Shown here: positions 27,679 through 51,829 of the stretch, in pieces
Layout of the letters: the number at the start of each line of letters is the position of its first letter
Position numbering within the stretch: position 1 is the first letter of the stretch
Source of the DNA: a virus
Reading direction: 5' to 3' (one strand)
Virus record (IMG/VR): IMGVR_UViG_3300025101_000026
Coordinates: 20 to 64,019 of that record
Length of the DNA: 64,000 bases
Notes under the pieces: generated by a model
The model's database searches: none
The model's input: the letters and a program-made list of their open reading frames with translations, nothing else
What the model was told of the DNA's origin: nothing
Program-made: the position numbers and the translations under genes

Positions 27679-28160
27679 TGACTGATCCTACTTGGACTTA
27701 CCAAGGTCTACCTATTTTATCTATTGAAGGTATGCCTAAAGATACTTACGGTTTTATCTATCAAGTTACTCATATTCCTACTGGCAGAAAGTATTTAGGA
27801 AAAAAAGTATTATTTTTTGAAAGAAATAAAAAATTAGGTAAAAAAGAACTACAAGCATTAAAAGAAGAAAGAAAAGCTAAAGGTATAGGAGGAAGAGTAC
27901 CCTTAAAAAAGAAAGTTATAAAAGAATCAGATTGGGTAACTTATTATGGTTCTCAAAAAGAGATCCTTGAATTAGTAAAGAACGGTAATAAAAAAGATTT
28001 CAGGAGAGAAATCCTCAAATATGTAACTGATAAAAAACAATTAACATATTTTGAATGTAAATACCTATTTATAAATGAGGTATTGGAGACTCGTAATAAT
28101 TATATTAACGATAATATCCTCGGTAAATTTTACAGAAAAGATTTTTTAAATGAAAATTAA
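27678..28160 (+). CDS. GIY-YIG family endonuclease (free-standing, Seg-like)
   Basis: YGFIYQVTHIPTGRKYLGKK, ESDWVTYYGS, FRREIL, YINDNI. Confidence 0.65.
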   Translation: MTDPTWTYQGLPILSIEGMPKDTYGFIYQVTHIPTGRKYLGKKVLFFERNKKLGKKELQALKEERKAKGIGGRVPLKKKVIKESDWVTYYGSQKEILELVKNGNKKDFRREILKYVTDKKQLTYFECKYLFINEVLETRNNYINDNILGKFYRKDFLNEN

Positions 28161-28452
28161 AGATATATTATTAGAAGAATACGAAAAAGGTAACGTAAAG
28201 CTTATGGGCGATGTTATCTTACCGATTGGTAAGCAAATGGTACTACAAGCTGAAGAGGATACATATAATAGAGGTCTGTTAGTTACTAACAATAAAGATA
28301 AAAGCTACGATATAGCATATTGGGCTGATAAATTCGAACCTTACCCAATAGAAGTAGAAATAGACGGTAAATCAGTCTCTAAAGATGCTAAAGTAATCAA
28401 ACTATTATTTCACCCTGAAATGGATGAATCTACCTCAAAAGATATAAAATGA
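28150..28452 (+). CDS. Hypothetical protein with MKIKDILLEE leader
   Basis: 100-aa ORF; leader shared with many neighbours. Confidence 0.55.
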   Translation: MKIKDILLEEYEKGNVKLMGDVILPIGKQMVLQAEEDTYNRGLLVTNNKDKSYDIAYWADKFEPYPIEVEIDGKSVSKDAKVIKLLFHPEMDESTSKDIK

Positions 28453-29235: not shown

Positions 29236-29370
29236 ATGGCTAAAATAGTACTTAGCGATTACTTAGGTTCTAAGAGTAGAAAAAGACCAGGTATACACGC
29301 TAAAAGTAAAACATCTAAGCTTAAAAATAGTAGAAACTATAAAAAAGCTTATAAAGGACAAGGTAGATGA
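29236..29370 (+). CDS. 44-aa highly basic peptide (missing from ORF track)
   Basis: MAKIVLSDYLGSKSRKRPGIHAKSKTSKLKNSRNYKKAYKGQGR. It fills the gap exactly, and its TGA overlaps the next ATG (ATGA). Confidence 0.65.
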   Translation: MAKIVLSDYLGSKSRKRPGIHAKSKTSKLKNSRNYKKAYKGQGR

Positions 29371-29798
29371 AACTTTCACAAATCATATTAGAGGGACCCC
29401 TAGAATATGATCCTGATTTTAATCGTGAGATAGATAAGATACAAGATCAGGGCGGAAAGTACTTAGGTTCAGGCGATTATGGTTCAGTATACCTTTTAAA
29501 AGGAAAGGCAGTTAAAGTAACAACAGATTCTATTGAATTAGATCACGCTGAAAAACTTAAAGGCAAAAAAACTAATAATTTTGTTTATATTTTTGACGTT
29601 AATAGGTTGAATAATAAACTAGGAATTATTACAATGGAGGTTATGGGAGAATACAAAGGGGATATTCCGGAAGATTTTATTGATAAATTAGAAAAAGAAG
29701 CTGTTAGATTTAATATAGATCCAACAGAGTTAGACATAAGACCTGATAATTTCATGGTACATCCTAAATCAGGTAAGTTAAAAATGACTGACGTTTAG
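29367..29798 (+). CDS. Minimal protein-kinase-like enzyme with MKLSQIILE leader
   Basis: LGSGDYGSVY (Gly loop), AVKV (Lys), DIRPDNFM (catalytic loop), KMTD (metal-binding Asp). Confidence 0.65.
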   Translation: MKLSQIILEGPLEYDPDFNREIDKIQDQGGKYLGSGDYGSVYLLKGKAVKVTTDSIELDHAEKLKGKKTNNFVYIFDVNRLNNKLGIITMEVMGEYKGDIPEDFIDKLEKEAVRFNIDPTELDIRPDNFMVHPKSGKLKMTDV

Positions 29799-31552: not shown

Positions 31553-32481
31553 AAAAAATAATAGAATGGCATCAAAATATGGTTTTTAATTTTATGGCCA
31601 AGCTTAACTTAGGAGTATATGAAATAGCTTGGATATCATGGCTGAAAGGTTTATTGATGGGAGCTGTATTTACATTACTATGTAGCTGTGGAGTACAGTT
31701 TCAATATGGAGTATTAAATACGGCAGGACAAATAGACGGTATATACCAGACTCCAAATACTAAAGTAGATACTATTAGCTCAGTTTTTGATTTAAAAAGG
31801 AAGCTCAGAAACGACTTTAATTTTAGGTACGATTTTGCAACTTATGCAATGAACCAACCTTATTCTTTCTACTGGAATAATCCTAGATTAGAGGGTATTT
31901 GGAGACCATATAATAGGTTTGATGTTTATTTTCATAGCAACTGGTTTTGGAACGATTGGGCTTTTAATTACCCTTTCCATCATACTTGGGGTTGGAATAA
32001 TTGGTATAGTTGGAATAGACCATATTACTACTACGGATGGATTAGACCTTATAGTCCATGGAATAATTGGTATCAAGGACCTTTTAATAACCAGAGTTAC
32101 AATATAGTCTATAATGCTAGTAGAAGAGGTAGCTTAACTTCTAATCTTAATTCAAGTATTTCTAATAGAATTCAAACTAATAGAGTATTAAACGTAAGTA
32201 AAAGACCAGTAAACAATAATGCTGTAAATACATTAATTAATAATTATAAACCTAATAACAACTATAATTATAAACCTAGTAACAATAATACTATAATTGT
32301 AAAACCTAATAACAATAATAATTGGAAACCGAGTAATAATAATAACTATAAACCTAGTAATAACTATTCTAGACCAAGCAACAATTACTCAAGACCAAGT
32401 AATAACTATTCTAAACCTAGTAATAGCAGTATGTCAAGATCATCATCTTCATCTAGAGGTGGTAAAATAAATAGAGAATAA
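31549..32481 (+). CDS. Putative lipoprotein/membrane protein with Trp/Tyr-rich core and N/S/P-rich disordered tail
   Basis: Hydrophobic helix ending LLCSCG (lipobox-like), W/Y/N-rich centre, NNYSRPS repeats and an SRSSSSSRGG end. Confidence 0.55.
   Translation: MKKIIEWHQNMVFNFMAKLNLGVYEIAWISWLKGLLMGAVFTLLCSCGVQFQYGVLNTAGQIDGIYQTPNTKVDTISSVFDLKRKLRNDFNFRYDFATYAMNQPYSFYWNNPRLEGIWRPYNRFDVYFHSNWFWNDWAFNYPFHHTWGWNNWYSWNRPYYYYGWIRPYSPWNNWYQGPFNNQSYNIVYNASRRGSLTSNLNSSISNRIQTNRVLNVSKRPVNNNAVNTLINNYKPNNNYNYKPSNNNTIIVKPNNNNNWKPSNNNNYKPSNNYSRPSNNYSRPSNNYSKPSNSSMSRSSSSSRGGKINRE
32239..32426 (+). repeat. Imperfect 21-nt tandem repeats encoding NNY(K/S)(K/R)PS
   Basis: For example aataactataaacctagt / aataactattctagaccaagc / aacaattactcaagaccaagt / aataactattctaaacctagt. 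Confidence 0.75.
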
Positions 32482-33410
32482 TGATAGAATTACTGAGCCT
32501 TATACGAGAACAAATTGAAAAACCTAAAGCAGTAGTAATGGCCGGTGGTGGAGGTACAGGTAAAACATTTCTATTAAAACAGTTAGACTTACCTTCTCTA
32601 ACTCAATTTAATCCTGACAAATACGTAGAAGATCCAAACCACCGTTTTCATCGTAATTTAGGAGCAGCTTCAATACAGGTAGGTAAGGACGTAGAAGATG
32701 CAGCTGAAAAAGGAATTAGCTTTGTTTGGGATACAACTGCTTCTAATCCTTCTAAAATAAAAAGCTTAATAGATAAAGGATATGATGTTTATATGATTAT
32801 GGTATATGCTCATCCTATGATTTCATATATTGCTAATTTTGGAAGAGATAGATCTTTACCTTCTATAGCAGTTTTCTCTACTTGGCGTAACGTATACCAG
32901 TTAATATCTCAATACCAAGAAATGTTAGGAGATAATTTATCTATTTTTATTAACGATAGAGGTGGTAAATTTAATAAAGAAATCGAAGATTTTAATAAAG
33001 CTGCTGAAAGAGGAGTTAAAGGTATAACTGAATATCTTAAGTCTTATAACGAAAAAATGGGTACAGGTAAATCTTCATTTTTTGAACCTGTAAAAATGTC
33101 TTCCGAAGAAGAAAAAGCTTTTCAAGCAGCAGTAGCTGATGTTGATTACGATAGAAATAACAGATCTGAAGATAAAGCTATGAAACAAGAGTTTTTAAAA
33201 CTATACCGCAAAAACGGAGTAGGTCCTGGTGACGACCAGTTATTAAAAGCCCGTAATAAATTCAGAGATAAAAAAGCTAGTTTAGATAAAAAAACTGAAG
33301 ATGTTTTAAAAAATATAGCCGAACTACTTTTTAGCTCAGACTTTCAAAATTTACTCAAATCTTCTTCAGTTGCTGATATAGATAAAAAAGTACAAAAATT
33401 CTTAGCATGA
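32481..33410 (+). CDS. P-loop kinase (zeta-toxin/AAA_33-like) with leader
   Basis: KPKAVVMAGGGGTGKT, FNPDKYVE, SFVWDTT, GYDVYMIMV. Confidence 0.65.
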   Translation: MIELLSLIREQIEKPKAVVMAGGGGTGKTFLLKQLDLPSLTQFNPDKYVEDPNHRFHRNLGAASIQVGKDVEDAAEKGISFVWDTTASNPSKIKSLIDKGYDVYMIMVYAHPMISYIANFGRDRSLPSIAVFSTWRNVYQLISQYQEMLGDNLSIFINDRGGKFNKEIEDFNKAAERGVKGITEYLKSYNEKMGTGKSSFFEPVKMSSEEEKAFQAAVADVDYDRNNRSEDKAMKQEFLKLYRKNGVGPGDDQLLKARNKFRDKKASLDKKTEDVLKNIAELLFSSDFQNLLKSSSVADIDKKVQKFLA

Positions 33411-34597
33411 TAGCATTATATCCAGGAGCTTTTAAACCACCGCATAGAGGTCATTTTGAAGTAGTAAAAAGTTTACTACAAGGAAATCATGGAGGTAAAG
33501 TTTATGATATAGATAATTATGCTTCAGCAGGTTCTAGTGTATTAAAAGGAGATAGTGATAAATTACAAAAAATTCGAAAAGTTTTAGTATTTATAGGAGA
33601 AGGAGGAAGAAATGGTATAACTAGAGGTGAATCTACTAAAGTATGGAAAATATATGCTAAATATATTCCTGGAGTAGTAATAATGGACGGAGGAAAAAAT
33701 CCAATGTTGACAGCTAAAGATTATGCCAAAGCAAACCAACAAGAAAAATTTTATGCTGTAACAGGAGTTAGATCAGAAGAAGATTTACCGGATCTTAAAA
33801 GAGTTACAACTTTTAAAAATAGAGATAATGTACAAGGGTTAGTAATTCCATCTGCTGAAGGTTCAAAAGTTAGAGCAACTGATTTTAGAAAAGCAATCCT
33901 TTCAGGTAACTTAGATGAAGTTTTAGATTTTTTTCCTAGTGAATTATCAAAAGAAGAAATTTTAAATATTATAAGTATGTTAAAGTCAAGTATTATAGCG
34001 GAAAAAATGAGCGACGATTTGGATAACGTTATGGAAAATATTTTCAAAACCGAAGGGTCATCAGGAACTGCAACAGCACCTAAAAGTATTATACGCTCTG
34101 AAGATAGAGATAAGTTATTAAAAGTATTTACTCAACTAAGAAAAACTTTAGACCCTGAAACATTTGAATTAATATTTAATCAAAATCATATTAGAATACA
34201 AATCAAAGATATTGACTTAAAGATAGGATTCGATTATACCCCTTTTATGGCATCTCTTTTAGAATATATGATTAACGAAGGACATAATATAGTGCCCCTT
34301 CCTGAAGTTAAAATTAAGAAAGATATGGTTGAATCATCTGATTTTTTCGGTAAAACAGCTTATTATGAACCTACTAAGCAAGAAGTAGTTTTGTATGTTG
34401 AAGGCCGGCATCCTAAAGATGTAATGAGATCATTTGCTCATGAAATGATTCACCATAAACAAAATATTGAAGGTAGGTTAGGTAAAATTAGTACAACTGA
34501 TACAAATAAAGACGATAATCTACTAGAACTAGAAAAAGAAGCTTATTTAGAAGGTAATATTGCTTTTAGAAACTGGGAAGACTCAGTAAAAAATTAA
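33407..34597 (+). CDS. HxGH nucleotidyltransferase fused to a C-terminal HExxH (zincin-like) domain
   Basis: LYPGAFKPPHRGHFEV at the N-terminus, VRATDFRKA, and RSFAHEMIHHKQ...EKEAY near the C-terminus. Confidence 0.65.
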   Translation: MIALYPGAFKPPHRGHFEVVKSLLQGNHGGKVYDIDNYASAGSSVLKGDSDKLQKIRKVLVFIGEGGRNGITRGESTKVWKIYAKYIPGVVIMDGGKNPMLTAKDYAKANQQEKFYAVTGVRSEEDLPDLKRVTTFKNRDNVQGLVIPSAEGSKVRATDFRKAILSGNLDEVLDFFPSELSKEEILNIISMLKSSIIAEKMSDDLDNVMENIFKTEGSSGTATAPKSIIRSEDRDKLLKVFTQLRKTLDPETFELIFNQNHIRIQIKDIDLKIGFDYTPFMASLLEYMINEGHNIVPLPEVKIKKDMVESSDFFGKTAYYEPTKQEVVLYVEGRHPKDVMRSFAHEMIHHKQNIEGRLGKISTTDTNKDDNLLELEKEAYLEGNIAFRNWEDSVKN

Positions 34598-34605
34598 TTA
34601 AAAAG

Positions 34606-34634
34606 TTGGATAATTGTATGGAATTTCTTATATT
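34606..34634 (+). promoter_or_regulatory. Putative host-RNAP promoter TTG-N20-TATATT upstream of the HAD phosphatase
   Basis: GTTGGA...TATATT. Confidence 0.55.
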
Positions 34635-34665
34635 TAATAAAATACTATATTAAAATAAAGGTTAT

Positions 34666-35211
34666 ATGAATACAAGTATTGTAGATTTATTAGAAGCATA
34701 TCCGCTTCCGGAACAAAAAGAAATGCCACCATATAAAATATACTGTGATATGGATGGAGTTTTAACTGATTTTGAATCTCGCTTCGAACATTTTACTGGA
34801 ATGTCACCAAAAGAGTATGAAAATAATTACGGCACAGCAGCATTTTGGAATCTTATAGATGTTGAAGTAGGAGTAAGATTTTGGGTTGGAATGGATTGGA
34901 TGCCTCAAGGAAAGGAATTATGGAACTTTATTCTTCCTTACAAACCTGATTTATTAACTTCACCGTCTAGAGATAATAATTCTAGATTAGGTAAAAATTT
35001 ATGGGTTAAAAATAATTTAAATCCAAAACCGAAAGTAATTTTTGCTTATTCTGCTGACAAACAAAGATATGCTAATGAAAATAGTATATTAATTGATGAT
35101 AAAAAATCTAATATTAATGAATGGATAGCAAAAGGTGGAATAGCTTTTAGAGTAAAAGGAGGAGACATAACACCAGCAATTCAAGGACTTAAAGAACTAG
35201 GATATGAATAA
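34666..35211 (+). CDS. HAD-family 5'(3')-deoxyribonucleotidase-like phosphatase
   Basis: IYCDMDGVLTDF, LLTSP, GKNLW, ILIDDKKSNINEWIAKGG. Confidence 0.8.
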   Translation: MNTSIVDLLEAYPLPEQKEMPPYKIYCDMDGVLTDFESRFEHFTGMSPKEYENNYGTAAFWNLIDVEVGVRFWVGMDWMPQGKELWNFILPYKPDLLTSPSRDNNSRLGKNLWVKNNLNPKPKVIFAYSADKQRYANENSILIDDKKSNINEWIAKGGIAFRVKGGDITPAIQGLKELGYE

Positions 35212-35779
35212 CGATTCAGTACTAAAAAAGGAATTTAAAAAATCTGACGTACAGAGAGTTAGAAACTTAGTTAATAAAGATTTTACCGGAGCTACTAAAT
35301 CACAATCAGGATATAAAAAATCTTACAAAAGATATAAGGAAGGTGATATTTGGGAAGTAGATGGAAGAAAATGGACTATTAAAAATGGTATCAAACAAAA
35401 TATTACTAAATTAGATTCTGCAAAAAAATCAATTAGAATTCCTTTAATTTGTCCTAAATGTAGCAAATCTCTTAAACATCATCTACATACTAAAATGTAT
35501 AAAATACATGGATTCTGCTTAGACTGTACTGTAGATATGGAACATAAACTTAAACTAGCAGGATTATATAAGCAATACGAACAGCGTATGCTTCAAGGAA
35601 ATATGAAAGTTTTTGCTCAAGATATAGAAGCATGGGCTGGAGAATTAGTTAATACTAATGATAGTTATGTTACCGAAGGTGGAGATATAGAAGATTGGAG
35701 ATCTAATAATCAAAAAAATAAAGAGTTTTTAAGTGATATAAAAGAATATATCCAACATCTTTCTAAACACATAAAATAG
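35204..35779 (+). CDS. Hypothetical protein with Zn-ribbon
   Basis: CPKC...HGFCLDC. Confidence 0.55.
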   Translation: MNNDSVLKKEFKKSDVQRVRNLVNKDFTGATKSQSGYKKSYKRYKEGDIWEVDGRKWTIKNGIKQNITKLDSAKKSIRIPLICPKCSKSLKHHLHTKMYKIHGFCLDCTVDMEHKLKLAGLYKQYEQRMLQGNMKVFAQDIEAWAGELVNTNDSYVTEGGDIEDWRSNNQKNKEFLSDIKEYIQHLSKHIK

Positions 35780-35782
35780 GTA

Positions 35783-35790
35783 TATTTATA
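35783..35790 (+). promoter_or_regulatory. Putative late promoter TATTTATA
   Basis: Intergenic, before ATG 35810. Confidence 0.55.
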
Positions 35791-35809
35791 TATAAACCTA
35801 TTTAATACT

Positions 35810-36157
35810 ATGACACAGAAACAATTATTAGAATCTGTACTTTCTGAAATAGTTCATATCAAAAAACATATGCCTAATGGAGAATTAAAGCAAATGCAAA
35901 AAGATATGGAAGATTTAAAAGAAAACATTTCAGACCTTAAATATACTTTACTTAATCCTGATAATGGAGTTATAGTTACTACTAATAAAAATACTGCCTT
36001 TCGCAAATCTATGGAAAGTAATGAAAGAGACTTTTTAGCAAAAATGATTGAATTAGAAGGTATAAAACGTTGGAAGGAAGGAGTTACTAAAGCTCTGTGG
36101 ATACTATTCACAGCACTAGCAGGCATAATAATAAGATTATTAACTGAAGTAGTATAA
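35810..36157 (+). CDS. Coiled-coil protein with C-terminal transmembrane helix
   Basis: KALWILFTALAGIIIRLL at the C-terminus; TATTTATA upstream. Confidence 0.55.
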   Translation: MTQKQLLESVLSEIVHIKKHMPNGELKQMQKDMEDLKENISDLKYTLLNPDNGVIVTTNKNTAFRKSMESNERDFLAKMIELEGIKRWKEGVTKALWILFTALAGIIIRLLTEVV

Positions 36158-37146
36158 TGGAAAGTAAGAAGAGAATATCACCCGATATGTATGCTTTTAT
36201 GAGAGAACTTATAAGAGAATCTCTTCGTGATTGGTTTAAAAAAGAAAAATGGGTTAGAATATCTACCTCCGGTAACATAGCCGGTCCATGCGGTACTTCT
36301 AAAAATAAAAAAAATCCTGATAGATGTTTACCTGCAGCAAAAGCTAGAAGCTTAACTAAAGCTCAAAGAGCTGCAACAGCTAGAAAAAAGAAAAAAGCAG
36401 GAGCTAAAGGTCAAACAGTAGTTAAAAATACAAAAAAGGCAACAGTGAAAAAAGAAAATTTAGATCCGTCTTATAAACATGACGGTAAATCTGCACCTTA
36501 TGGTTCAGGTTATAGACCAATCAAGAAAGAAGACGTTAAAAATTTAATAGTAGGTCTACTACAAGAATATAAAAAAGAAAAAGTAGTTACTGAAAAAGAT
36601 GATAGATGTACTCGTATAGCTAAAAGAAAGTATGATACTTGGCCATCAGCTTATGCTTCAGGAGCAGTAGTAAGATGTAGAAGAGGGGAAATATGGAAAG
36701 GTGTTAAAGAAGAAACTTTGAAAGAAATGGACGGTGGTCAATTATTTGACTATTTCGCTAAAAAAGGATATAAAGTAACAGAACGTAGACCAGATGGAAA
36801 AGAAGCTGGATTTGAAGGGTATATGGTAAGTAAAGGGGATGGCCCGTACCCTCAAACAGTAATATTTCAATATGATAAAGATGTTGATCAATTTATGATT
36901 AGTAGAATGGGTGGTTATAGAATCGATCAAAAAGAAGCTATTAAAGCAGGAATGAGAGAACCAGGCTACTCAGGTGTTGTTGGAAGGGATTCTTATATGA
37001 CAGACGGAAATTATACTCCAGTTGATATTTCAGCTGAAGGATTAAAAGATATAGTTGATCATGTAATGACCGGGTTAGATCGAGAAGGTCAAGCACAAGC
37101 TGATTTTTATAAAGCCAGAGGCCGTACATCAGGTACTATAGATTAA
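36157..37146 (+). CDS. Modular Lys-rich protein (putative internal head polyprotein)
   Basis: Short modules SLRDWFKKEKWVRI, GKSAPYGSGY and WPSAYASGAVVRCR, separated by (I/L/V)-x-E sites. Confidence 0.55.
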   Translation: MESKKRISPDMYAFMRELIRESLRDWFKKEKWVRISTSGNIAGPCGTSKNKKNPDRCLPAAKARSLTKAQRAATARKKKKAGAKGQTVVKNTKKATVKKENLDPSYKHDGKSAPYGSGYRPIKKEDVKNLIVGLLQEYKKEKVVTEKDDRCTRIAKRKYDTWPSAYASGAVVRCRRGEIWKGVKEETLKEMDGGQLFDYFAKKGYKVTERRPDGKEAGFEGYMVSKGDGPYPQTVIFQYDKDVDQFMISRMGGYRIDQKEAIKAGMREPGYSGVVGRDSYMTDGNYTPVDISAEGLKDIVDHVMTGLDREGQAQADFYKARGRTSGTID

Positions 37147-37159
37147 TGAACTGTAAAGA

Positions 37160-37807
37160 ATGAAATTATCTAAATTAATATTGGAAAATAAAGAATTTAA
37201 GCTACCAGCACTATCCTTTGGCTATGATGCATTGGAACCTCATATAGATGAAGAAACTATGAGAGAGCATCATACTAAGCATCATAAAGGATATGTTACT
37301 AAGCTTAACGATGCTATGAAAGGCAAAGGTAAAAGTATAGAAGATATTTTATCTAATATTAAAAAATATGATGATAAAGTTAGAAATAATGCCGGTGGAG
37401 TTTATAATCATACTCTATATTTTAATTTAATGTCACCTGATGCTACTACAAATCCAGTCGGTCAATTAAAAGAAGATATAGATAAAGCTTTTGGTTCTTA
37501 TCAAAATTTTAAAGAAGAATTTTCTAACGCCGGTACAGGACAGTTTGGTTCCGGTTGGGCTTGGTTAACTCTTACTAATGAAGGACTAAAAATACATAGT
37601 ACTCCTAATCAAGATAATCCATTAATGAGCTACTCTGAAATTAAAGGAGATCCTATAATAGGTATGGATGTTTGGGAGCATGCTTATTATCTTAAACATA
37701 AAAGTCAAAGAGCAAAATATATTAAGGATTTTTTCAAAGTACTGTGTTGGAAAACAGCAGAAGAAAATTATCAAAAATTAATTAACAAAGACAATGAAGA
37801 TAATTAA
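37160..37807 (+). CDS. sodA: Fe/Mn superoxide dismutase, Mn-type signature
   Basis: HHTKHHKGYV, NNAGGVYNH, FGSGWAWL, NQDNP, DVWEHAYYL. The GGxxNH plus QDNP pattern fits Mn/cambialistic enzymes. Confidence 0.9.
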   Translation: MKLSKLILENKEFKLPALSFGYDALEPHIDEETMREHHTKHHKGYVTKLNDAMKGKGKSIEDILSNIKKYDDKVRNNAGGVYNHTLYFNLMSPDATTNPVGQLKEDIDKAFGSYQNFKEEFSNAGTGQFGSGWAWLTLTNEGLKIHSTPNQDNPLMSYSEIKGDPIIGMDVWEHAYYLKHKSQRAKYIKDFFKVLCWKTAEENYQKLINKDNEDN

Positions 37808-38267
37808 ACTTATTAAAGACTTAGTGCTGGAGGGTAAACTATCGGATTACGGTAAAAATAATACCCCTGCAGCATTAAATAAAGAAAAAGCTTTAGGTAA
37901 TAAAAAAGTAGATCCGATGGATTCTATACAAGACCTAGATCTTAATACATTAGGTAGAAACGTAACAGTAAAAGAATACAGATACGGTCCTCTTAATCCT
38001 AACGACGAAAAAGGTTCTAAAAAATTCTGGGAAGATAAAGCTGAAATGTGGGATACAACAGTAGAACACGCTAAGACTTCAAGATGTTCCAATTGTTCTG
38101 CTTTTAATCAAAAGCCTGCTACTCTTAAAAAAATAGCTAAAGCAATAGGAGATGAGGGTGAAAAGATAGTCAAACAGTCTAATATAGGTTTTTGCGAATT
38201 TTTCTGGTTTAAATGTGCAGGTGCTAGATCATGCGATGCATGGGTCGGAGGCGGTCCTTTAAAATAA
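37794..38267 (+). CDS. Hypothetical Cys-motif protein with leader
   Basis: MKIIKLIKDLVLEG; CSNC...FCEFFWFKCAGARSCDAW. Confidence 0.55.
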   Translation: MKIIKLIKDLVLEGKLSDYGKNNTPAALNKEKALGNKKVDPMDSIQDLDLNTLGRNVTVKEYRYGPLNPNDEKGSKKFWEDKAEMWDTTVEHAKTSRCSNCSAFNQKPATLKKIAKAIGDEGEKIVKQSNIGFCEFFWFKCAGARSCDAWVGGGPLK

Positions 38268-38273
38268 TTTATT

Positions 38274-39074
38274 ATGCCATTAGGTAAAAAAGCAGACGCA
38301 GGAGATTATATAAAAGACTTTCGAAAATCAGATGCACCTCAGTTTAAAGGTAAGTCTAAGAAAAAGAGAGATCAAATGGCTGTAGCTGCTTATTTAGCTA
38401 AAAAAGACGAAATCGTAGATATAGTTAAAGAATTACTACAAGAAGCTGATCCAAAAAAAGGTACAGGTAAAAAACCTAAAGGCTCTGACCGTAGATTATA
38501 TACTGATGAAAATCCTAAGGATACAGTCTCAGTAAAATTTTCTTCAAGACAAGATATAGTTGATACTTTAAATAAAAAATCGTTCAAAGCTAAATCTCAT
38601 GCTCGCCAATCTCAAATTATTAATTTAATTCATCAAAGAGTAAGAGCAGCATACGGTAGAGCAAAAGATCCAAAAGTTAAGAAAAGATTAAAAACTGCAT
38701 TAGATTATGCTGAGCAAAGAAAAGAATCATCTAAGAAAAAAACTCAAAGATTGAAAAAAGTTAAAAACGAAAGTTTATGGGCTAATATTAATGCTAAAAA
38801 GAAAAGAGGTGAAAAATCTTCTCATAAAAATTCTAAAGCTTATAAAGCTGCTAAAAAGGCAGGTGTAGCATTAAAAAAATCTAAAGTTAAAGAAATAGTT
38901 TTAGATGTACTGTACGAAAAAAGTGTACATGATCCTGTTAAACCAGGTATACTAAAGAAACGATTAGGTGATCTATCATGCTCAAAAGTAAGATCAGCAA
39001 AAAGTAAATTAAAAAATAAAGGCACTCATTATGCCAAAGCATTACAGAGATACTTAAATTACCATTGTCAATGA
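38274..39074 (+). CDS. Very basic modular protein (putative DNA-binding internal head protein)
   Basis: Modules DYIKDFRKSDAPQFKGK, DPKKGTGKKPKGSDRRLYTDE, SLWANINAKKKRG and VKPGILKKRLG, separated by LQE/KNE/LYE. Confidence 0.55.
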   Translation: MPLGKKADAGDYIKDFRKSDAPQFKGKSKKKRDQMAVAAYLAKKDEIVDIVKELLQEADPKKGTGKKPKGSDRRLYTDENPKDTVSVKFSSRQDIVDTLNKKSFKAKSHARQSQIINLIHQRVRAAYGRAKDPKVKKRLKTALDYAEQRKESSKKKTQRLKKVKNESLWANINAKKKRGEKSSHKNSKAYKAAKKAGVALKKSKVKEIVLDVLYEKSVHDPVKPGILKKRLGDLSCSKVRSAKSKLKNKGTHYAKALQRYLNYHCQ

Positions 39075-39697
39075 TATTAACAGATAATAAACTTAATGAA
39101 AAAGCCTGTTTTACAGAGCCTACGTTAAATATAGATACTCTAATAGATAATAATAGCGTAGACTTATTTGATCAAAACGGATATCATTTAACTAAAGCTG
39201 AACAAGCTTATTTGCAATACAACGGATACAAACCAATTGAAAGGAGACATGAAGACTGTCTTAGATATGATTGGTTAGTCTGGGATAAAAGAGAAGGTGC
39301 TCATATAAACCATTCTGATTTATTTGAAAGAAAAGGGTTTGATGAAGATGCTAAAAAACAGTTATTAGAAATAGCTAAAATTAACCCTATGTTGTATAAA
39401 CTTATCAAAATGAAACCTAAATGGGGTATAGATATTTCTATAGATTACGTATCTGAAAACGCAGTATTTGAAGTTTTTCATTACGAATGGGATTCTTTTA
39501 ATTATAACGCTGTAATAGAAAAAAAACAAGAAATAGAAGAATTTATGTTATCAAAAGATTGGGATGATATTGCAATAACTCTTTGGAAAAAGAAAGATGA
39601 GTGGTATGATTTAGATTTCTTTGATCAAACTCAATGGAGAACTGATTATTTCGGACTATCCCCTGAAAACTTTAAAAACGTTATTTGGGAAGATTAA
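39065..39697 (+). CDS. Hypothetical protein
   Basis: 210-aa aromatic/acidic ORF overlapping the upstream gene. Confidence 0.55.
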   Translation: MSMILTDNKLNEKACFTEPTLNIDTLIDNNSVDLFDQNGYHLTKAEQAYLQYNGYKPIERRHEDCLRYDWLVWDKREGAHINHSDLFERKGFDEDAKKQLLEIAKINPMLYKLIKMKPKWGIDISIDYVSENAVFEVFHYEWDSFNYNAVIEKKQEIEEFMLSKDWDDIAITLWKKKDEWYDLDFFDQTQWRTDYFGLSPENFKNVIWED

Positions 39698-39703
39698 TCT
39701 ATT

Positions 39704-39711
39704 TATTTATA
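39704..39711 (+). promoter_or_regulatory. Putative late promoter TATTTATA
   Basis: Intergenic, before ATG 39735. Confidence 0.55.
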
Positions 39712-39734
39712 TAGCTATATTAAACTGACATATA

Positions 39735-41816
39735 ATGACCTACCAAGAAATCAAAAACCGTTTAGCTAAGTGTGAATTAGCATTATCAAAAATAAAAGAC
39801 GGTACATACTCTTCAATATCTACTTTAGATCAGAAAATTACTAAAGAAAAGTTAGAAGTATTAAAAGAATCATATTTAAAATTACTTAAAGAACAAGATG
39901 GAGAAATAGGTGATGATGGTTTTGTATCAACTGATGATGAAAAAAAAGCTGCTGATCTAGCTAAAGATGGAGTAAAAGTAAAACTAACTAGCGAGCAAGA
40001 AGGAGTTTTATTTTCAGTAGAAGAAACCAAAGCTATAGCTAAAGAAGTAGGAAAAGCTTTAATCGAAGCTTTGAGAGCTGCAGGAGACGAAATAGAAACT
40101 ATCAAAGCTCATCATATAGAAGAAAATACTTTTGATGTTTATGTTAGATATAAAAATGATTTCGAAGATGAATTTACTTTTGATATAAGAGATGATAAAT
40201 TACATCTTGTAGATTTTTCATTCGATAAAGAATTAGTTGATGTTGGTATTAAACCTTCAGGACAGCCTATAATTAATGTGGATGTTTTAAAAAATGAATT
40301 ATTGAAGCATTTTAAATCATTAAATGAAGAAGAAACCGATAGACAAAAATATCTACGAATGTTAGATATGTACAAAAAATCTTCAGGACAGGAAAGAAAA
40401 GATCTTAAAGATAAAGTTCTGAAAGCAGCTAATCAAGTAGGTATAAAATTACAATTATCTGAAGCACCCGAAGGAATGTTTTATCTAAAAGTAGACATAA
40501 GAGATGCAAGACATGCTATACAGATATTAGATGATAAATATAGAAAACAAGTTGAATTTAGCGGTTCAGATACTTACTACTTTAATGATGAATCTACTGC
40601 GTACGATGCAATGATGGATCTTAAAGCTCATGATATAGGAATAGCCGATACTAATTTAGATTTATTTTCGGAAGAAGAAGAATTTATTAATCATCCTCAA
40701 CTAGCTTTAAATATTTTAAAAAAAATAGGTAGAGAAACTTTTGTTAATATATACAAAAAATACCAAGGAACAGGACAAAGTCGTAATCAAGAACTGAAAA
40801 AAGAACTTATGGATCTTGTTATGCCTGAAGTTAAAAAATTAAATCTTAACGATAGTGACGAAGAAAAAGTTATGAATATGCTTAAAAGAGGATTAGCTTC
40901 ACTTGAAGCATCTATGATGAGACAAAGAATGAAACTACAAGAAGGTAGAGGAGTAATGGCTTCCATTAAAAATGCTATAGAAGAGTTGATGTTTAATGGT
41001 GATATGAGCGAAAAAGAAGCTGCTATGGAATTAGTTATTGCTATATCAGATGAATATGGATTTGATTTAGCAGGAAGAGAGTTTGATTTATTCCATGGAA
41101 ATGATGGAGATGTTGATGAAAATAATCTTAAAAAACTTGGAGACCAAGGATTCAATATAGGTCCATCTAAAAAAGAAAGAAAAGCAAAAGCTTTAGTTCA
41201 AGCATTAAAAGCTAAAAGAGCTCAAGTAATGAAAGATATGGAGCAAGAAGCAGAACCTGAAGGAGGCCCAATGGCTGATAAATATGGAGATATGCTTAAT
41301 AAAATTGATGCTGCCATAGAAAAATTACAAGGTCAAAAACAAAAGGTAAACGAAGAAAGTAAATTAATGATCAATGGCAAACCAGTTGATGTTAGTTCTA
41401 TAGAGATAGATGGAGTAGATAAATCTCAAGGGTATGATGATGGTACTGTAGATGCATTTGCTGTATATGCTGAATTTGAAGATGGTAGTAAATTAACTGA
41501 TAGTGAATTAGAGGAACTTACAGATGACAATCCTGATTTAATTCATAATCTTGCTATAGATACTTTTCATGAATCAGCTCCTGGTTACAAACATGATTGT
41601 GCAGCTCATGTAGTTCATGAAACTTACGGACATGGAATGTGTATACCTGAAAAACATACCTTAATTAAAGAAGGAAATAAATATGTAGTAACTCATTACG
41701 ACGTAGTTTTCAAAAAAGATAAAAAAGTAGTAAGAGATATACCAGTAAACGAACTGAAAATAATTACTCAGAATGAGCACTGGCATAAAAATTACAAAAA
41801 GAAAAAGAAAGACTAA
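39735..41816 (+). CDS. Large acidic modular protein with His/Cys C-terminal module
   Basis: Multiple LKE/LSE/LNE/LQE junctions; C-terminal HDCAAHVVHETYGHGMC...HTL...THYDVVF. Confidence 0.55.
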   Translation: MTYQEIKNRLAKCELALSKIKDGTYSSISTLDQKITKEKLEVLKESYLKLLKEQDGEIGDDGFVSTDDEKKAADLAKDGVKVKLTSEQEGVLFSVEETKAIAKEVGKALIEALRAAGDEIETIKAHHIEENTFDVYVRYKNDFEDEFTFDIRDDKLHLVDFSFDKELVDVGIKPSGQPIINVDVLKNELLKHFKSLNEEETDRQKYLRMLDMYKKSSGQERKDLKDKVLKAANQVGIKLQLSEAPEGMFYLKVDIRDARHAIQILDDKYRKQVEFSGSDTYYFNDESTAYDAMMDLKAHDIGIADTNLDLFSEEEEFINHPQLALNILKKIGRETFVNIYKKYQGTGQSRNQELKKELMDLVMPEVKKLNLNDSDEEKVMNMLKRGLASLEASMMRQRMKLQEGRGVMASIKNAIEELMFNGDMSEKEAAMELVIAISDEYGFDLAGREFDLFHGNDGDVDENNLKKLGDQGFNIGPSKKERKAKALVQALKAKRAQVMKDMEQEAEPEGGPMADKYGDMLNKIDAAIEKLQGQKQKVNEESKLMINGKPVDVSSIEIDGVDKSQGYDDGTVDAFAVYAEFEDGSKLTDSELEELTDDNPDLIHNLAIDTFHESAPGYKHDCAAHVVHETYGHGMCIPEKHTLIKEGNKYVVTHYDVVFKKDKKVVRDIPVNELKIITQNEHWHKNYKKKKKD

Positions 41817-41817
41817 T

Positions 41818-42423
41818 ATGAAAGTTAAACATCTAAAAGAATTAATAGAAGAAGCATACATACAAGTTCTTAGAGAAGCTGAAGAACCTAAACCTGAAGA
41901 TCCTATAGGGGACCAGGAAGCAAGTGATGAAACAGTTTTAGAGGATGCTACTGATACAATGTTAGAAAAGTTCCCTACTCTTAAAAAAACTTTAACTAAA
42001 TTAATGACTGAGGATTTCAAAGAGTTTGTAGATACTATAGATTGGGTATCGCCAAAACCTACAACCTTTAGAGTTAATTTAGTAAACGGCCAAGACTTTA
42101 CTTTAAAATGGACCGGTAATAATTTTCAAGCACAAATATTAGGTAAAAGATACATGCTAGGATTCATTAGTGAATTCCAACAAGCATTAGATAAATTAGC
42201 ACGTTTGTATCAAGAAGCACCTCTTAAAGGAGCTGGAGAAGGCGACGCTGAAAGTAGTCCTGAAGCTGATTTCGGCGGAGGTGGCGGAGGCGGAGATTTC
42301 CCCGGTGAAGAAGGTGGAGGAGCAGATGCTGCTTTTGATGATGCAGGTGGTGAAGAAGGTGGAGGAGCTGATTTAGGCGGAGAAGAAATAGACTTCGAAG
42401 CAGGAGAAGAACCAGAAGCATAA
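41818..42423 (+). CDS. Hypothetical protein with leader and Gly/Glu/Asp tail (start probably 41818, not 41773)
   Basis: MKVKHLKELIEEAY begins just after the upstream stop; low-complexity GGGGGGDFPGEEGGG tail. Confidence 0.55.
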   Translation: MKVKHLKELIEEAYIQVLREAEEPKPEDPIGDQEASDETVLEDATDTMLEKFPTLKKTLTKLMTEDFKEFVDTIDWVSPKPTTFRVNLVNGQDFTLKWTGNNFQAQILGKRYMLGFISEFQQALDKLARLYQEAPLKGAGEGDAESSPEADFGGGGGGGDFPGEEGGGADAAFDDAGGEEGGGADLGGEEIDFEAGEEPEA

Positions 42424-43610: not shown

Positions 43611-45185
43611 ATGGCAAAAGATATTAAAAAAATAATAGCACAGGAGTATATTAAATGTGCTAAAGATCCGGCGTACTTTATGAGAAAGTATTGCCATATA
43701 CAACATCCTACTAGAGGTAGAATACTCTTCAACTTATACCCTTTTCAATCAGAGGTTCTACATTTATTTAAAGAACATCAATATATCATTACTTTAAAAT
43801 CAAGACAGCTAGGTATATCAACTTTAGCTTCTGCTTATAGTTTATGGTTAATGCTCTTTCATAAAGATAAAAACGTATTAGCTCTAGCAACTACTCAAGC
43901 AACAGCTAGAAATCTTGTTACTAAGACAATGTTTATGTATGATGAGTTACCTAAGTGGTTGAAGTTACCCGCATTAGAAAAAAATAAATTATCTCTTAGA
44001 CTAAAAAACGGATCAAAAATTACAGCAAAATCATCTAATGCAGATGCTGCAAGATCTGAAGCAGTATCATTACTTTTGATAGATGAGGCAGCGTTTATAG
44101 ATAATATTGCCGAAACCTTTACAGCTGCACAACAAACGTTAGCTACAGGAGGTCAGTGTATGGCTTTATCAACTCCTAATGGTATAGGAAACTGGTTCCA
44201 TCAAACTTGGGATAAAGCAGAAGCTGGAGATAATTCGTTTTTACCTATAAGACTACCATGGACGGTTCATCCGGAAAGAGATAAGGAATGGAGAGAACAG
44301 CAAGATAGAGACTTAGGACCTAGAATGGCAGGACAAGAATGTGATTGCGATTTTCTAGCTTCAGGTGATACAGTATTCGAACCAGATGACTTAAGTTTTT
44401 ATGAACAAACTTATCAAAAGGATCCTGTAGAAAAAAGAGGAGTTGACGGTAATTTGTGGATTTGGGAGCAACCTGACTACTCTAAATCATATATGGTAGT
44501 AGCTGATGTATCTAGAGGAGACTCAGTAGATTATTCAGCGTTTCATGTATTTGATATAGAAACTTGTGTACAAGTAGGAGAGTATAAAGGCAAATTATCT
44601 CCTAAAGATTTCGGAAATGTACTTGTAGCTATAGCAGCTGAATATAACGATGCTTTACTAGTAGTAGAAAATGCAAACATAGGCTGGGCGACTATAGAAC
44701 AAATATTAGAAAGAGAATATCGTAATTTATACTATAGTCCTAAAAGTCAAATGGACACAGTAGAATCTTATATGACTAAATATGAGAGAGATCAACTAGT
44801 ACCTGGATTTACTATGTCAGTTAGAACCCGTCCTTTAGTTATAGCTAAGATGATGGAGTATATAAGGGAAAAAGGGGTGACTATTCAATCTAAACGATTG
44901 ATGGGAGAAATGAGAGTTTTTGTATGGAAAAACGGTAAAGCTCAAGCTCAAACTAATTATAACGATGATTTACTAATGTCTTGTGCAACTGCACTATATG
45001 TTAGAGATACAGCGTTAAAACTAAGACAACAAGGTATGGACCTTGCTAGAGCAAGACTTTCTTCGTTTCAAAACTTAAATGCTCGTAACCAATCTGTCAT
45101 ATCATCAGTTGGATCCCAAATAAATAATCCTTATATTATAAAGACGGACCATGGAAATGAAGATATCTCATGGTTAATTAGATAA
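43611..45185 (+). CDS. gp17: Terminase large subunit
   Basis: KSRQLGIST (Walker A), LLLIDEAAF (Walker B), STPNG, VVADVSRG..DYSAF, NDDLLM. Confidence 0.92.
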   Translation: MAKDIKKIIAQEYIKCAKDPAYFMRKYCHIQHPTRGRILFNLYPFQSEVLHLFKEHQYIITLKSRQLGISTLASAYSLWLMLFHKDKNVLALATTQATARNLVTKTMFMYDELPKWLKLPALEKNKLSLRLKNGSKITAKSSNADAARSEAVSLLLIDEAAFIDNIAETFTAAQQTLATGGQCMALSTPNGIGNWFHQTWDKAEAGDNSFLPIRLPWTVHPERDKEWREQQDRDLGPRMAGQECDCDFLASGDTVFEPDDLSFYEQTYQKDPVEKRGVDGNLWIWEQPDYSKSYMVVADVSRGDSVDYSAFHVFDIETCVQVGEYKGKLSPKDFGNVLVAIAAEYNDALLVVENANIGWATIEQILEREYRNLYYSPKSQMDTVESYMTKYERDQLVPGFTMSVRTRPLVIAKMMEYIREKGVTIQSKRLMGEMRVFVWKNGKAQAQTNYNDDLLMSCATALYVRDTALKLRQQGMDLARARLSSFQNLNARNQSVISSVGSQINNPYIIKTDHGNEDISWLIR

Positions 45186-45211: not shown

Positions 45212-47134
45212 ATGGCAGATACTTCACTTTTTAAACGATTAGGCAGACTTTTTTCTTCAGACGTAGTAATAAGAAACGTAGGAGGAAACCAACTTAAAGT
45301 AGCCGATGTTAATCAAATACAAACTACAGGTAGATATAAAACTAATTCTCTTATAGATAGGTTTAGTAGATTATATTTGTATAACAATAAAAATATATTT
45401 AATCCTAACCTTAATTATCAAACTTTAAGAATACAGTTATATTCTGATTATGAAGCTATGGACACTGACCCGTTAATAGCATCAACACTAGATATTATTT
45501 CAGATGAAGCTACTTTAAAAAACGATATGGGTGAAGTTTTAACTATAAAATCTTCAGATGAGAATATTCAAAAAATACTTTACAACCTTTACTACGATGT
45601 ATTAAATATTGAATTTAATTTATGGTCATGGACTCGTAACATGTGTAAATACGGAGATTTCTTTTTAAAATTAGAAATCGCTGAAGAGTTCGGAGTATAT
45701 AATGTTATGCCTTATACAGTTTATCATATGACCAGACAGGAAGGTTTAGACCCTGATAATCCTGCTAAAGTAACTTTTCAACTAGATCCTGATGGTTTAG
45801 CATCATCTCAAGATCCAAACTATATTCCTAAAAGTAACAGAAGAGTTATTCAATTCGATAATTATGAAGTAGCCCACTTCAGATTAATATCAGATACTAA
45901 TTACTTACCTTACGGTAGATCTTTTATAGAGCCAGCTAGGAAAATATTTAAACAACTTACTCTTATGGAAGATGCGATGTTAATTCATCGTATTATGAGA
46001 GCGCCTGAAAAGAGAACTTTCTATATAAATGTAGGTCAAATACCTCCTAACGAAGTTGAGCAGTTTATGCAAAAAACTATTACTCAAATGAAAAAAACTC
46101 CTTTCGTTGATCCGAATACAGGAGATTATAATCTTAGGTTCAATATGATGAATATGATGGAAGATTATTATATTCCAATGAGAGGTGGAGATACTCAAAC
46201 TAAAATTGATACTACTAAAGGATTAGATTATGATGGTACTAATGATATAGAATATCTTAGAGATAAAATGTTTGCTGCTCTTAAAGTACCGAAAGCGTAT
46301 TTTGGGTATGAAGGAGATTTACAAGGAAAAGCTACATTAGCAGCTGAAGATATAAGGTTTGCTAGAACAGTTGAAAGAATACAAAGAATTTTAGAATCTG
46401 AATTAACTAAGATAGCTTTAGTACATTTATATGTTCAAGGATTTAAAGGAGAATCATTAACTAATTTTGAAATAAAGCTTACTAATCCTTCTATAATATT
46501 CGAACAAGAAAAGGTAGCACTCTTAAAAGAAAAAGTAGATTTAGCTTCCCAGATGATGGATACTAAATTATTTCCAACTGATTATATATACGACCATATA
46601 TTTAATCTGTCTGAAGACCAGTATATGGAAATGAGAGACTTAGTAGCTGAAGATTATAAACGTATCTTTAGATTAGGTCAAATTGAAAATGAAGGTAATG
46701 ACCCTGCTAAATCTGGCAAATCGTACGGTACTCCTCATGATCTAGCTTCTTTATATGGTAGAAGACAAGGAGATCAAAAAGGTATGCCTTTTGGAAGAGT
46801 TCCTGCAGGATATGAAGATGATACTCCTGGTATAGGTAAAATAGGACCTGAAGGAGGACGTCCTAGAATTCATGCTTCACATTACGGTACTAACGATGGT
46901 TTAGGAGGTAGAGATCCTCTTGGACAGGATGCAATGAAAGGAGGCTTCGATTCTGATAACGAAAACGTTAACGAAAACGAATCAAGCAAAAAAATAGATA
47001 ATACACTTGCTAGATCTTTATTTTATCAAAACAAAGAAATGTTTAATGATAAAAAGCAAATAATTTTTGAAAATAAAGACGAAGAAGAAGATAATTTATT
47101 AGATGAATCACAAATACAAGATTTAGATAATTAA
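45212..47134 (+). CDS. gp20: Portal protein (T4 gp20-like)
   Basis: KQLTLMEDAMLIHRIMRAPEKRTFYINVG, MMEDYYIP.RGG, LKVPKAY, EDIRFARTVERIQ. Confidence 0.92.
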   Translation: MADTSLFKRLGRLFSSDVVIRNVGGNQLKVADVNQIQTTGRYKTNSLIDRFSRLYLYNNKNIFNPNLNYQTLRIQLYSDYEAMDTDPLIASTLDIISDEATLKNDMGEVLTIKSSDENIQKILYNLYYDVLNIEFNLWSWTRNMCKYGDFFLKLEIAEEFGVYNVMPYTVYHMTRQEGLDPDNPAKVTFQLDPDGLASSQDPNYIPKSNRRVIQFDNYEVAHFRLISDTNYLPYGRSFIEPARKIFKQLTLMEDAMLIHRIMRAPEKRTFYINVGQIPPNEVEQFMQKTITQMKKTPFVDPNTGDYNLRFNMMNMMEDYYIPMRGGDTQTKIDTTKGLDYDGTNDIEYLRDKMFAALKVPKAYFGYEGDLQGKATLAAEDIRFARTVERIQRILESELTKIALVHLYVQGFKGESLTNFEIKLTNPSIIFEQEKVALLKEKVDLASQMMDTKLFPTDYIYDHIFNLSEDQYMEMRDLVAEDYKRIFRLGQIENEGNDPAKSGKSYGTPHDLASLYGRRQGDQKGMPFGRVPAGYEDDTPGIGKIGPEGGRPRIHASHYGTNDGLGGRDPLGQDAMKGGFDSDNENVNENESSKKIDNTLARSLFYQNKEMFNDKKQIIFENKDEEEDNLLDESQIQDLDN

Positions 47135-48041: not shown

Positions 48042-48277
48042 AAATTAGTCAATTAAGAGAATTAGTTAAAGAAGTAATGCAAGAGATGAATGAAATGAGT
48101 ACTACTGCAGGAGCAGGTGCTTATCATACTCCTTTTGCTTTCAGTAAAAACCAAAGAAAAAATAGAGCTACTAAGTATGGTGAGAAGCTCGGTTATATTA
48201 CAGTAAAAAGAAAAAAAAGACCATACAATACAAAAATGATTGATTATTTAGATGAAAACTCTACAAGAAAAATATAA
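48038..48277 (+). CDS. Small head-module protein with leader
   Basis: [19 protein letters not shown] followed by [15 protein letters not shown] and a basic tail. Confidence 0.55.
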
Positions 48278-51323: not shown

Positions 51324-51829
51324 TGAAACTTTCTCAAATTATATTTGAAAACGATGAAAAAGAACTAGCTTTAAGTTTTAAAGCGGCTTTGGATAAAGAA
51401 ATGGAAGATGGTAAACTCGATGAGATTGCCATTTCAGCATTAGGTGTATTGACTTGGGCTTTAGCATCTAATACAGTACTAAACATGCTAGGTAAATATG
51501 CTAGCAAAAAGTTAAAGAAAATAGGTTTTGATAAAACTGCTGATAAAGCATCTGCATTACAAAACTGGGCTCATAACAATGAACAAAACTTTATTAGATT
51601 TATAGGAGGGATTATTAGCCCTTTCGTAAAAGATGTCCAGAAAAGAAAAACAGTGGCTAAAGGATTATTTTTATTAGTATTAGTTGGTTTAGGTATAAAA
51701 GCGGGGGTTGGAGTAGCTAAAGCATTAAAAGCTACGAGTGCTAGTAGTGCTACAGTAGCAGCTCTTAAAGGTGCATTAAAAGGTAGAGATATAGCTAATA
51801 TAGGAAAAGAATTAGCTGCAGCACTTTAA
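51323..51829 (+). CDS. Hydrophobic/amphipathic protein with MKLSQIIFE leader
   Basis: Charged leader to LDE, then IAISALGVLTWALAS and GLFLLVLVGLGIKAGVGVA hydrophobic segments. Confidence 0.55.
   Translation: MKLSQIIFENDEKELALSFKAALDKEMEDGKLDEIAISALGVLTWALASNTVLNMLGKYASKKLKKIGFDKTADKASALQNWAHNNEQNFIRFIGGIISPFVKDVQKRKTVAKGLFLLVLVGLGIKAGVGVAKALKATSASSATVAALKGALKGRDIANIGKELAAAL

Follow-up and report, generated by a model that had tools for sequence, protein, structure and literature searches.

The capsid-targeting sequence (CTS) of bacteriophage T4 has been known since the 1990s, mainly from a few small anti-restriction proteins and from engineered fusions. The first 10 residues of T4 internal protein IPIII, its CTS, are enough to bring GFP, nuclease or beta-galactosidase, all foreign to the phage, into the prohead core, and the CTS is then cut off by gp21 (PMC9026906, PMC3012670, PMC5694885). 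T-even phages have a diverse set of internal proteins whose sole common part is the CTS (PMC9026906, PMC3012670), and T4-type prohead proteases cut C-terminal to Glu in a hydrophobic-x-Glu motif (PMC5694885, PMC9026906). In the jumbo phages phiKZ, 201phi2-1 and SPN3US, a gp21-related protease cleaves many proteins of the head interior C-terminal to Glu, and paralogues have identical N-terminal stretches in common (PMC5694885). Among eukaryotic viruses, chlorovirus PBCV-1 encodes a late, virion-packaged Cu/Zn superoxide dismutase (SOD; A245R), with a suggested role in reducing superoxide levels in early infection (PMC7019647). Here, we analyze an Fe/Mn SOD gene in a 64,000-nucleotide stretch of viral DNA (“the window”; positions 20 to 64,019 of IMG/VR record IMGVR_UViG_3300025101_000026). 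The encoded protein begins with a leader that is conserved, phage-specific, outside the enzyme fold and common to unrelated proteins, and that ends in a gp21-type motif. From these sequence features and by analogy with T4, we favor, with some reserve, a reading in which the leader is a T4-CTS-like capsid-targeting propeptide with proteolytic release and the SOD is head cargo. A literature search returned no published account of an Fe/Mn SOD that is packaged in phage virions or that bears a CTS.

An Fe/Mn SOD with an N-terminal leader

The gene and its parts, in window positions, are as follows:

37160-37807, + strand: Fe/Mn superoxide dismutase precursor, 215 residues, ATG start, stop codon at 37805-37807 (PF00081 and PF02777, PDB matches, AlphaFold2 model)
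37160-37186, + strand: leader M1-E9 (MKLSKLILE), a putative capsid-targeting propeptide that would be cut after Glu9
37187-37804, + strand: predicted mature SOD, N10-N215; alignments to solved SODs begin at residue 12-13

As an enzyme, the SOD is unremarkable within its family. Sod_Fe_N (PF00081) matches residues 12-92 (E 7.6e-26, 90.8 bits; Pfam gathering cut-off 27) and Sod_Fe_C (PF02777) matches residues 100-203 (E 5.8e-36, 123.1 bits; gathering cut-off 20.9). The top solved relatives in the PDB are Mn or cambialistic SODs, with E-values of 1e-62 to 1e-50. Residues H37, H84, D170 and H174 (codons CAT 37268-37270, CAT 37409-37411, GAT 37667-37669 and CAT 37679-37681) are invariant in a 34-sequence alignment and fall in conserved HH.KHH, NH and D.WEH motifs, as in solved Mn SODs; we take them to be the metal ligands after H26, H81, D167 and H171 of E. 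coli SodA. The Mn-type signature is present as AGGVYNH (residues 78-84, with Gly-Gly at 79-80) and NQDNP (residues 150-154, with Gln151), signatures that do not separate Mn-specific from cambialistic SODs. An AlphaFold2 model (mean predicted local distance difference test score [pLDDT] 87.6, predicted template-modeling score [pTM] 0.86) has the two-domain SOD fold, with helices at residues 31-53 and 72-89 and a three-stranded sheet at 132-170; our fold assignment combines this model with PDB sequence matches at E 1e-62. Overall, Pfam, the PDB and the alignment confirm the intact Fe/Mn SOD with ligands H, H, D and H and a Mn-type signature described in an initial annotation of the window, and the gene product is predicted from its sequence to be a functional-looking SOD of Mn or cambialistic type.

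In the precursor, M1-E9 and N10-K11-E12 precede the F13-K-L-P with which the conserved part of the protein begins. Cellular SODs starting MAFELP have their residue 3 at the position of F13 in the alignment, so that the extension amounts to 10 residues. The initial annotation had noticed a leader before the usual SOD start and suggested that it is a virion-targeting propeptide; the extension is indeed present, although the string quoted for it omitted E12. All 19 of the closest homologues (64-92% identity, all metagenomic) keep the leader, with the consensus M-K-(L/I)-S-x-(L/I)-(I/L)-(L/F)-E-x-K, and both E9 and K11 are invariant among the 20 SODs of this leader clade. The annotation had counted a shared extension in host homologues against its suggestion. 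The leader is absent from the cellular Bacteroidota homologues, which start MAFELP or have longer forms with Tat/Sec-type signals. In the AlphaFold2 model, pLDDT is below 50 at residues 1-9 and ~90 from residue 11. Moreover, both the cellular and the solved SODs start level with residues 11-13 of the phage protein, placing the leader outside the mature fold.

The longer cellular forms bear on a reading of the leader as a secretion or membrane signal, with the SOD periplasmic or anchored: some cellular homologues (P0027, P0031, P0051, P0094) do have Tat/Sec-like N-termini. We consider this reading very improbable. The leader is only 9-10 residues long, with charges at K2, K5, E9, K11 and E12, and it has no uninterrupted hydrophobic core, twin-arginine motif or lipobox Cys. 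It is unlike the signals of the cellular homologues, and the same tag occurs on otherwise soluble-looking proteins.

Even less probability attaches to an annotation artefact, in which translation truly starts downstream of the leader. Codon 8 of the window gene is TTG, a possible start codon, and was the candidate we examined. Relatives have TTA or TTC at this position; TTG at codon 8 is found in the window only, and this downstream start is therefore ruled out. The next in-frame Met is M34, which lies inside the fold. Among orthologues, leader codons differ synonymously (AAA/AAG, TTA/CTA, TTG/TTA, ATA/ATT) while the amino acids are kept, and the DNA 5' of the ATG is unrelated, a pattern that points to selection at the protein level.

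The leader also travels with the SOD gene. In Tara-type relatives (L002-L004, L013-L017), the SOD occupies another genomic site, between a SegE-like endonuclease gene and a primase gene, and retains its leader; small ORFs (open reading frames) around it start MKLSSIIFE, MKLSKVILE and MKLSKIILH. In two further relatives, the ORF 5' of the SOD reads in frame into the SOD without a stop (L007:9578-10648 and L008:9578-10648, 356 residues in total), and its upstream part begins with a leader of the type M..IKITDILLEA. The joined frame encodes either one natural precursor of two cargoes or the products of two genes, one of which starts internally.

The leader on unrelated proteins and the head-assembly genes

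The window derives from an IMG/VR virus record of 64.3 kb with a CheckV completeness of ~39%. Every gene lies on one strand, the GC content is ~32%, and the presence of a head module (large terminase, gp20 portal, S77 prohead protease and gp23-type capsid protein) identifies it as a fragment of a T4-like phage. By capsid protein, the closest isolate is Flavobacterium phage vB_FspM_immuto (hereafter immuto; 62% identity), whose gene order is syntenic with the window.

Sharing of the SOD leader was first seen by listing the N-termini of all window ORFs. In a BLOSUM62 scan of SOD residues 2-10 against 19,219 nine-residue positions in the 61 other window ORFs, ranks 1 and 2 fell at residue 2 of ORFs 51323 and 29367. 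A profile built from 20 SOD leaders, scanned over the same 19,219 positions, placed its top three scores at residue 2 of ORFs 51323, 29367 and 28150 (23.0, 21.0 and 18.9 bits); the fourth score, 13.7 bits, fell at an internal position. As a negative control, the profile was run over 150 kb of immuto (223 ORFs, 44,344 positions), where it peaked at 13.0 and had no top match at an N-terminus. The leader-bearing ORFs, and one with a weaker resemblance, are:

51323-51829, + strand: 168-residue ORF with leader MKLSQIIFE; best profile match (23.0 bits); no Pfam or PHROG family
29367-29798, + strand: 143-residue ORF with leader MKLSQIILE; second profile match (21.0 bits)
28150-28452, + strand: 100-residue ORF with leader variant MKIKDILLE; third profile match (18.9 bits)
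37794-38267, + strand: 157-residue ORF with a weaker, longer leader-like start, MKIIKLIKDLVLE; overlaps the SOD stop by 14 nt

PHROGs holds no family for the SOD or for the other leader-bearing ORFs. Orthologues of ORF 29367 in L005, L007 and L009 retain the leader, the MKIKDILLE of ORF 28150 is the variant found on SODs of Tara-type relatives, and ORF 37794 is conserved in L005 and L007. More generally, runs of three hydrophobic residues and a Glu that end between residues 7 and 14 occur 10 times as often as such runs in the rest of the window's proteome (6/496 versus 23/19,240 positions; Fisher p 7e-5). The four window leaders are written in different codons, arguing that they do not stem from recent DNA duplication.

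In relatives, the leader is found on several small ORFs and also on a larger protein:

32481-33410 in the window, L002:14070-14999 and L010:565-1506 in relatives: zeta-toxin-like P-loop protein (PF06414, E 3e-10)

The copies in relatives have the clean leaders MIKLTDLILEA and MIKLSDIILEQ, and the window copy has diverged to MIELLSLIRE.

Two side observations concern these small ORFs. A gene for a SegE-like GIY-YIG homing endonuclease (window 27678-28160; PF19835, E 1.3e-27) lies directly 5' of the leader-bearing small-ORF cluster. The same layout recurs in relatives, and it is in this cluster that Tara-type phages have their SOD. Separately, a different recurring N-terminus, MK(I/K)(S/N)Q(L/I)R..(I/V)KE, is found on small ORFs of both the window (3973-4419, 48038-48277) and immuto (113188-113946, 123355-123576), and may represent another leader family.

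The genes relevant to the proposed processing lie in the head-assembly module, downstream of the SOD:

43611-45185, + strand: large terminase
45212-47134, + strand: gp20 portal (PF07230 match)
50745-51323, + strand: prohead protease of the T4 gp21 family (S77), proposed processing enzyme (PF03420, E 6.1e-35)
51957-53291, + strand: putative scaffold/prohead core protein, presumed docking partner of the leader (by composition and by its position between protease and capsid protein)
53315-55015, + strand: gp23-type major capsid protein (PF07068, E 1.2e-79)

The protease aligns to the T4 gp21 structure 5JBL (E 4e-23). Leader-bearing ORF 51323 begins at the protease stop and precedes the putative scaffold and the capsid protein, and so sits inside this module. 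The putative scaffold has no Pfam match; it is acidic and helical, contains many hydrophobic-x-E sites and is syntenic with immuto26A_204. We infer its scaffold role from position and composition.

The end of the SOD leader, I7-L8-E9, fits the hydrophobic-x-Glu rule, and its Glu is invariant in all 20 sequences. The capsid protein of the window provides a comparison: in an N-terminal alignment, its [IL][VIL]xE site IVAE59/Q (the slash marks the cut) aligns with FLTE/AE of a Straboviridae capsid protein, which, from what is known of gp23, we take to be the T4-type capsid maturation site. We had also considered ILE50/N as the maturation site. Residues 44-53 of the capsid propeptide hold MAMILENQAKQ, which immuto also keeps and which lines up with KILENQE in the Straboviridae capsid protein; ILENQ is therefore an old motif of the propeptide that need not be cleaved, and the alignment makes IVAE59/Q the more likely homologous cut. 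A complex prediction for the protease with SOD residues 1-40, run without controls, scored 0.00 and counts neither for nor against cleavage.

Taken together, the leader has all formal properties of a CTS-like tag: it is short, outside the fold and shared, it ends in I-L-E, and the phage encodes a gp21-family protease. The virion-targeting propeptide of the initial annotation finds support in that the leader is conserved, absent from hosts, present on unrelated ORFs, outside the fold and hydrophobic-x-Glu at its end in a phage with the matching protease; the surrounding “internal-head” genes that had been cited in its favor are another matter, as described below.

Genomic context and relatives of the SOD

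The SOD lies inside a tightly packed gene string, 35810-39697, preceded by a promoter-like motif:

35783-35790, + strand: promoter-like TATTTATA, the sole such intergenic site 5' of the string
3962, 12322, 13582, 19076, 35783, 39704, 47139, 51854, 55094, 55816, 60120, 60151 and 61374, + strand: TATTTATA sites

On the + strand, 13 of the 17 copies of TATTTATA are intergenic, in a window that is 6.6% intergenic (binomial p 8.5e-13), and these copies mostly lie 11-48 nt ahead of tail, head and unknown genes. The broader motif TATTTATW is not enriched (47 matches versus 39 +/- 6 expected); only + strand TATTTATA copies concentrate between genes. TATTTATA reads as the reverse complement of the T4 late promoter, TATAAATA. 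That the SOD gene string is preceded by the same promoter-like motif as tail and head genes supports the proposed loading of the SOD into the head.

The immediate neighbours are less informative. The initial annotation placed the SOD among putative internal-head genes. ORFs 36157, 37794, 38274, 39065 and 39735 have no informative family in Pfam and PHROG scans, which makes “internal-head genes” a guess and leaves that part of the annotation unsupported. Two neighbours are basic (ORF 36157, isoelectric point 9.7; ORF 38274, isoelectric point 10.2, 28% K+R), which is suggestive only as a hint of internal-head genes. Nucleotide-handling genes lie 2-5 kb 5' of the SOD (a 5'-3' deoxyribonucleotidase-like ORF, 34666, and the zeta-toxin-like P-loop ORF 32481), and the terminase lies 6 kb 3' of it.

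A phylogeny of the SOD, which the initial annotation had proposed as a check, places the leader clade on a single branch (Shimodaira-Hasegawa-like approximate likelihood ratio test [SH-aLRT] 99), apart from a second viral SOD clade and with Bacteroidota-type cellular SODs as its nearest relatives in the tree sample. The best cellular matches are 53-58% identical and come from Bacteroidota (Vicingaceae, Owenweeksia, Cryomorphaceae, Saprospirales, Salinimicrobium and others). Cellular Bacteroidota SodA-like SODs and solved Mn SODs (6PRO, 1JR9, 2RCV) share the two-domain fold, the four ligands and the GG..NH plus NQD signature with the phage proteins; the phage clade differs from cellular SODs in its 10-residue leader, its own branch and clade-specific substitutions such as YYLKHKS in place of the cellular YYLKYQN. 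We propose that an ancestor of these marine T4-like phages acquired the SOD from a Bacteroidota-type host and that the leader was added in the phage lineage. Since the SOD relatives are Bacteroidota-like and the nearest isolate is immuto, the sequences also make a Flavobacteriia-type host likely for the window phage.

Two chimeric SODs stand beside this pattern. In P0021 (on an 870-bp contig) and P0071 (on a 1465-bp contig), the N-terminal half is host-like and without leader, starting MSFSLP or MAFELP, and the C-terminal half (YYLKHKSQR...IING) is identical in style to that of the leader-bearing phage SODs. Misassembly at the conserved NQDNPLM region could account for both, as could recombination between host and phage.

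Relatives of the window SOD are encoded on at least 589 IMG/VR contigs. Among isolates the picture is sparser: megablast of window positions 34000-42000 against 50,697 phage records gave zero matches, and tblastn of the SOD against isolate phage records found no member of the leader clade. The best tblastn matches (42-48% identity) are chiefly unannotated or short records under phage names, with two contigs of Salmonella genomes and a small number of annotated sod genes besides; they look like bacterial or prophage DNA. Clearly phage-encoded SODs of jumbo phages (PA5oct group, Vibrio 2.275.O) are only 24-26% identical to the window SOD.

This distribution and the gene context bear on the main alternative, in which the SOD is an auxiliary metabolic enzyme that acts in the infected cell's cytoplasm during replication, for instance by protecting Fe-dependent phage enzymes or by helping the host to withstand light or oxygen stress. 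The leader would then be unrelated to the capsid and would serve some other purpose, such as efficient translation initiation, stability, binding of a common interaction partner or timed degradation. The SOD genes on so many contigs, the nucleotide-metabolism genes 2-5 kb upstream and the occurrence of the leader, in relatives, on a P-loop enzyme of a normally cytoplasmic kind all fit such a role, and we give it an appreciable but minor probability. A translation-level signal would be expected in the DNA, yet the leaders differ in synonymous codons and conservation stops at the ATG. A cytoplasmic role also leaves unexplained both the invariant Glu just before the fold start and the leader-bearing ORF 51323 beside the protease in the head module, and the design of the tag is that which T4 uses for head cargo (PMC9026906). 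Packaging and a late cytoplasmic role are not mutually exclusive.

The second viral SOD clade (loci L018-L086) forms a separate long branch (SH-aLRT 100), with the SOD domain embedded in proteins of 360-750 aa. Three architectures occur; examples of the clade are:

L029:694-2226, L056:9533-11662 and L024:9536-10627: second-clade SOD proteins

The first type (~510 aa) consists of a ~35-aa helical N-terminal extension, the SOD and ~280 aa of unknown sequence; the second (~700-750 aa) of an N-terminal HExxH region, the SOD and a C-terminal region; and the third (~365 aa) of an HExxH region and the SOD. In 36 of 41 distinct junctions, the LPY that opens the SOD domain is preceded, at a distance of 9 residues, by a hydrophobic-hydrophobic-x-Glu motif. 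Five source records were tested: an S77 protease is encoded in two of them, and a gp23-type capsid protein in three. The two with S77 (149 and 104 kb, CheckV 51% and 36%) are fragments of ~290-kb genomes. These proteins resemble the window SOD in having an extension with a hydrophobic-x-Glu motif before the SOD domain, in genomes with S77 protease and gp23-type capsid protein, but they are multi-domain precursors and do not carry a 10-residue tag.

Proposed role and comparison with known systems

In the route we propose by analogy with T4, the leader would dock the SOD precursor on the scaffolding core during prohead assembly, and the S77 prohead protease would cut after Glu9 and release the mature SOD, whose N-terminus would be only ~1 residue longer than that of cellular SODs. 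Mature SOD would remain in the head with the DNA, would probably be ejected into the next host cell, and could remove superoxide at the very start of infection. The same analogy underlies each of these steps, from docking, cleavage and packaging to ejection and any physiological benefit. Packaged SOD might act in such early superoxide removal, for which the chlorovirus enzyme is the one precedent, or might protect the particle; protection of packaged DNA and damping of the host oxidative response, the roles put forward in the initial annotation, are conceivable on the same footing.

Several observations weigh against capsid targeting. The T4 CTS is MKTYQEFIAE. The likeness of the leader to it is limited to the M-K start, hydrophobic P3/P2 and Glu at P1, with no detectable homology between the 9-residue leader and the 10-residue CTS, nine residues being too short for a homology test. 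The hydrophobic-x-Glu motif is short and is common in this AT-rich, Glu/Lys-rich proteome. The SOD's neighbours, as noted above, belong to no informative family. Immuto, the nearest cultured relative, has neither leader nor SOD: the profile scan and a regular-expression scan were both negative for the leader, and the tblastn search found no SOD in it. Finally, some leader bearers, such as the P-loop protein of relatives, resemble ordinary cytoplasmic enzymes, and the tag could therefore serve another shared purpose.

One further N-terminus invites comparison with T4. A large ORF between portal and protease (48252-50741; immuto 123578-124660) begins with a sequence that is nearer to the T4 CTS than the SOD leader is, and may carry a second, older type of tag.

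If capsid targeting is correct, marine T4-like phages carry a host-derived housekeeping enzyme by the CTS trick of T4, and the leader marks a whole, largely unexplored set of injected proteins. The SOD would be the first bacteriophage counterpart of the virion-packaged chlorovirus enzyme, pointing to superoxide as an early obstacle to infection. The leader would allow the head cargo of uncultured phages to be predicted from sequence by a simple rule, and would add a natural tag to that of T4 for directing proteins into capsids. A broader, tentative extension, which we hold to be less likely than not, is that both viral SOD lineages, the 10-residue-leader clade and the multi-domain precursors of ~290-kb phages, are loaded into the prohead and released by the protease. 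In this scenario, SOD would be injected as one of a wider kit of preformed enzymes, blunting superoxide-dependent defence or photo-oxidative damage in the first minutes, and would be a recurrent cargo of environmental T4-like phages.

Among known systems, PBCV-1 A245R is similar to the proposed system in that a virus-encoded SOD is carried in the particle, as predicted for the window SOD; it differs in belonging to the unrelated Cu/Zn family and to a eukaryotic virus, with no propeptide-based loading described. The jumbo phages differ in that most of their propeptides exceed 100 residues and have the motif A/S-x-E, and in that their known cargo includes no SOD. The closest parallel is T4, whose CTS (on IPI, IPII and IPIII, and in the propeptides of Alt and gp24) is, like the leader, a short N-terminal propeptide (10-20 aa) on otherwise unrelated proteins of one phage. 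Both phages have a propeptide end of hydrophobic-x-Glu, an S77 protease, a gp23-type capsid protein and a gp20 portal. They differ in consensus, which is MKLSxLILE in the window phage, and in cargo: T4 packages small basic anti-restriction proteins and an ADP-ribosyltransferase, whereas the predicted cargo of the window phage is a host-derived housekeeping redox enzyme. The loading principle is already known from T4; what is new is the consensus of the leader, its proposed cargo in the form of a redox enzyme of host origin, and the occurrence of this arrangement across environmental T4-like phages.

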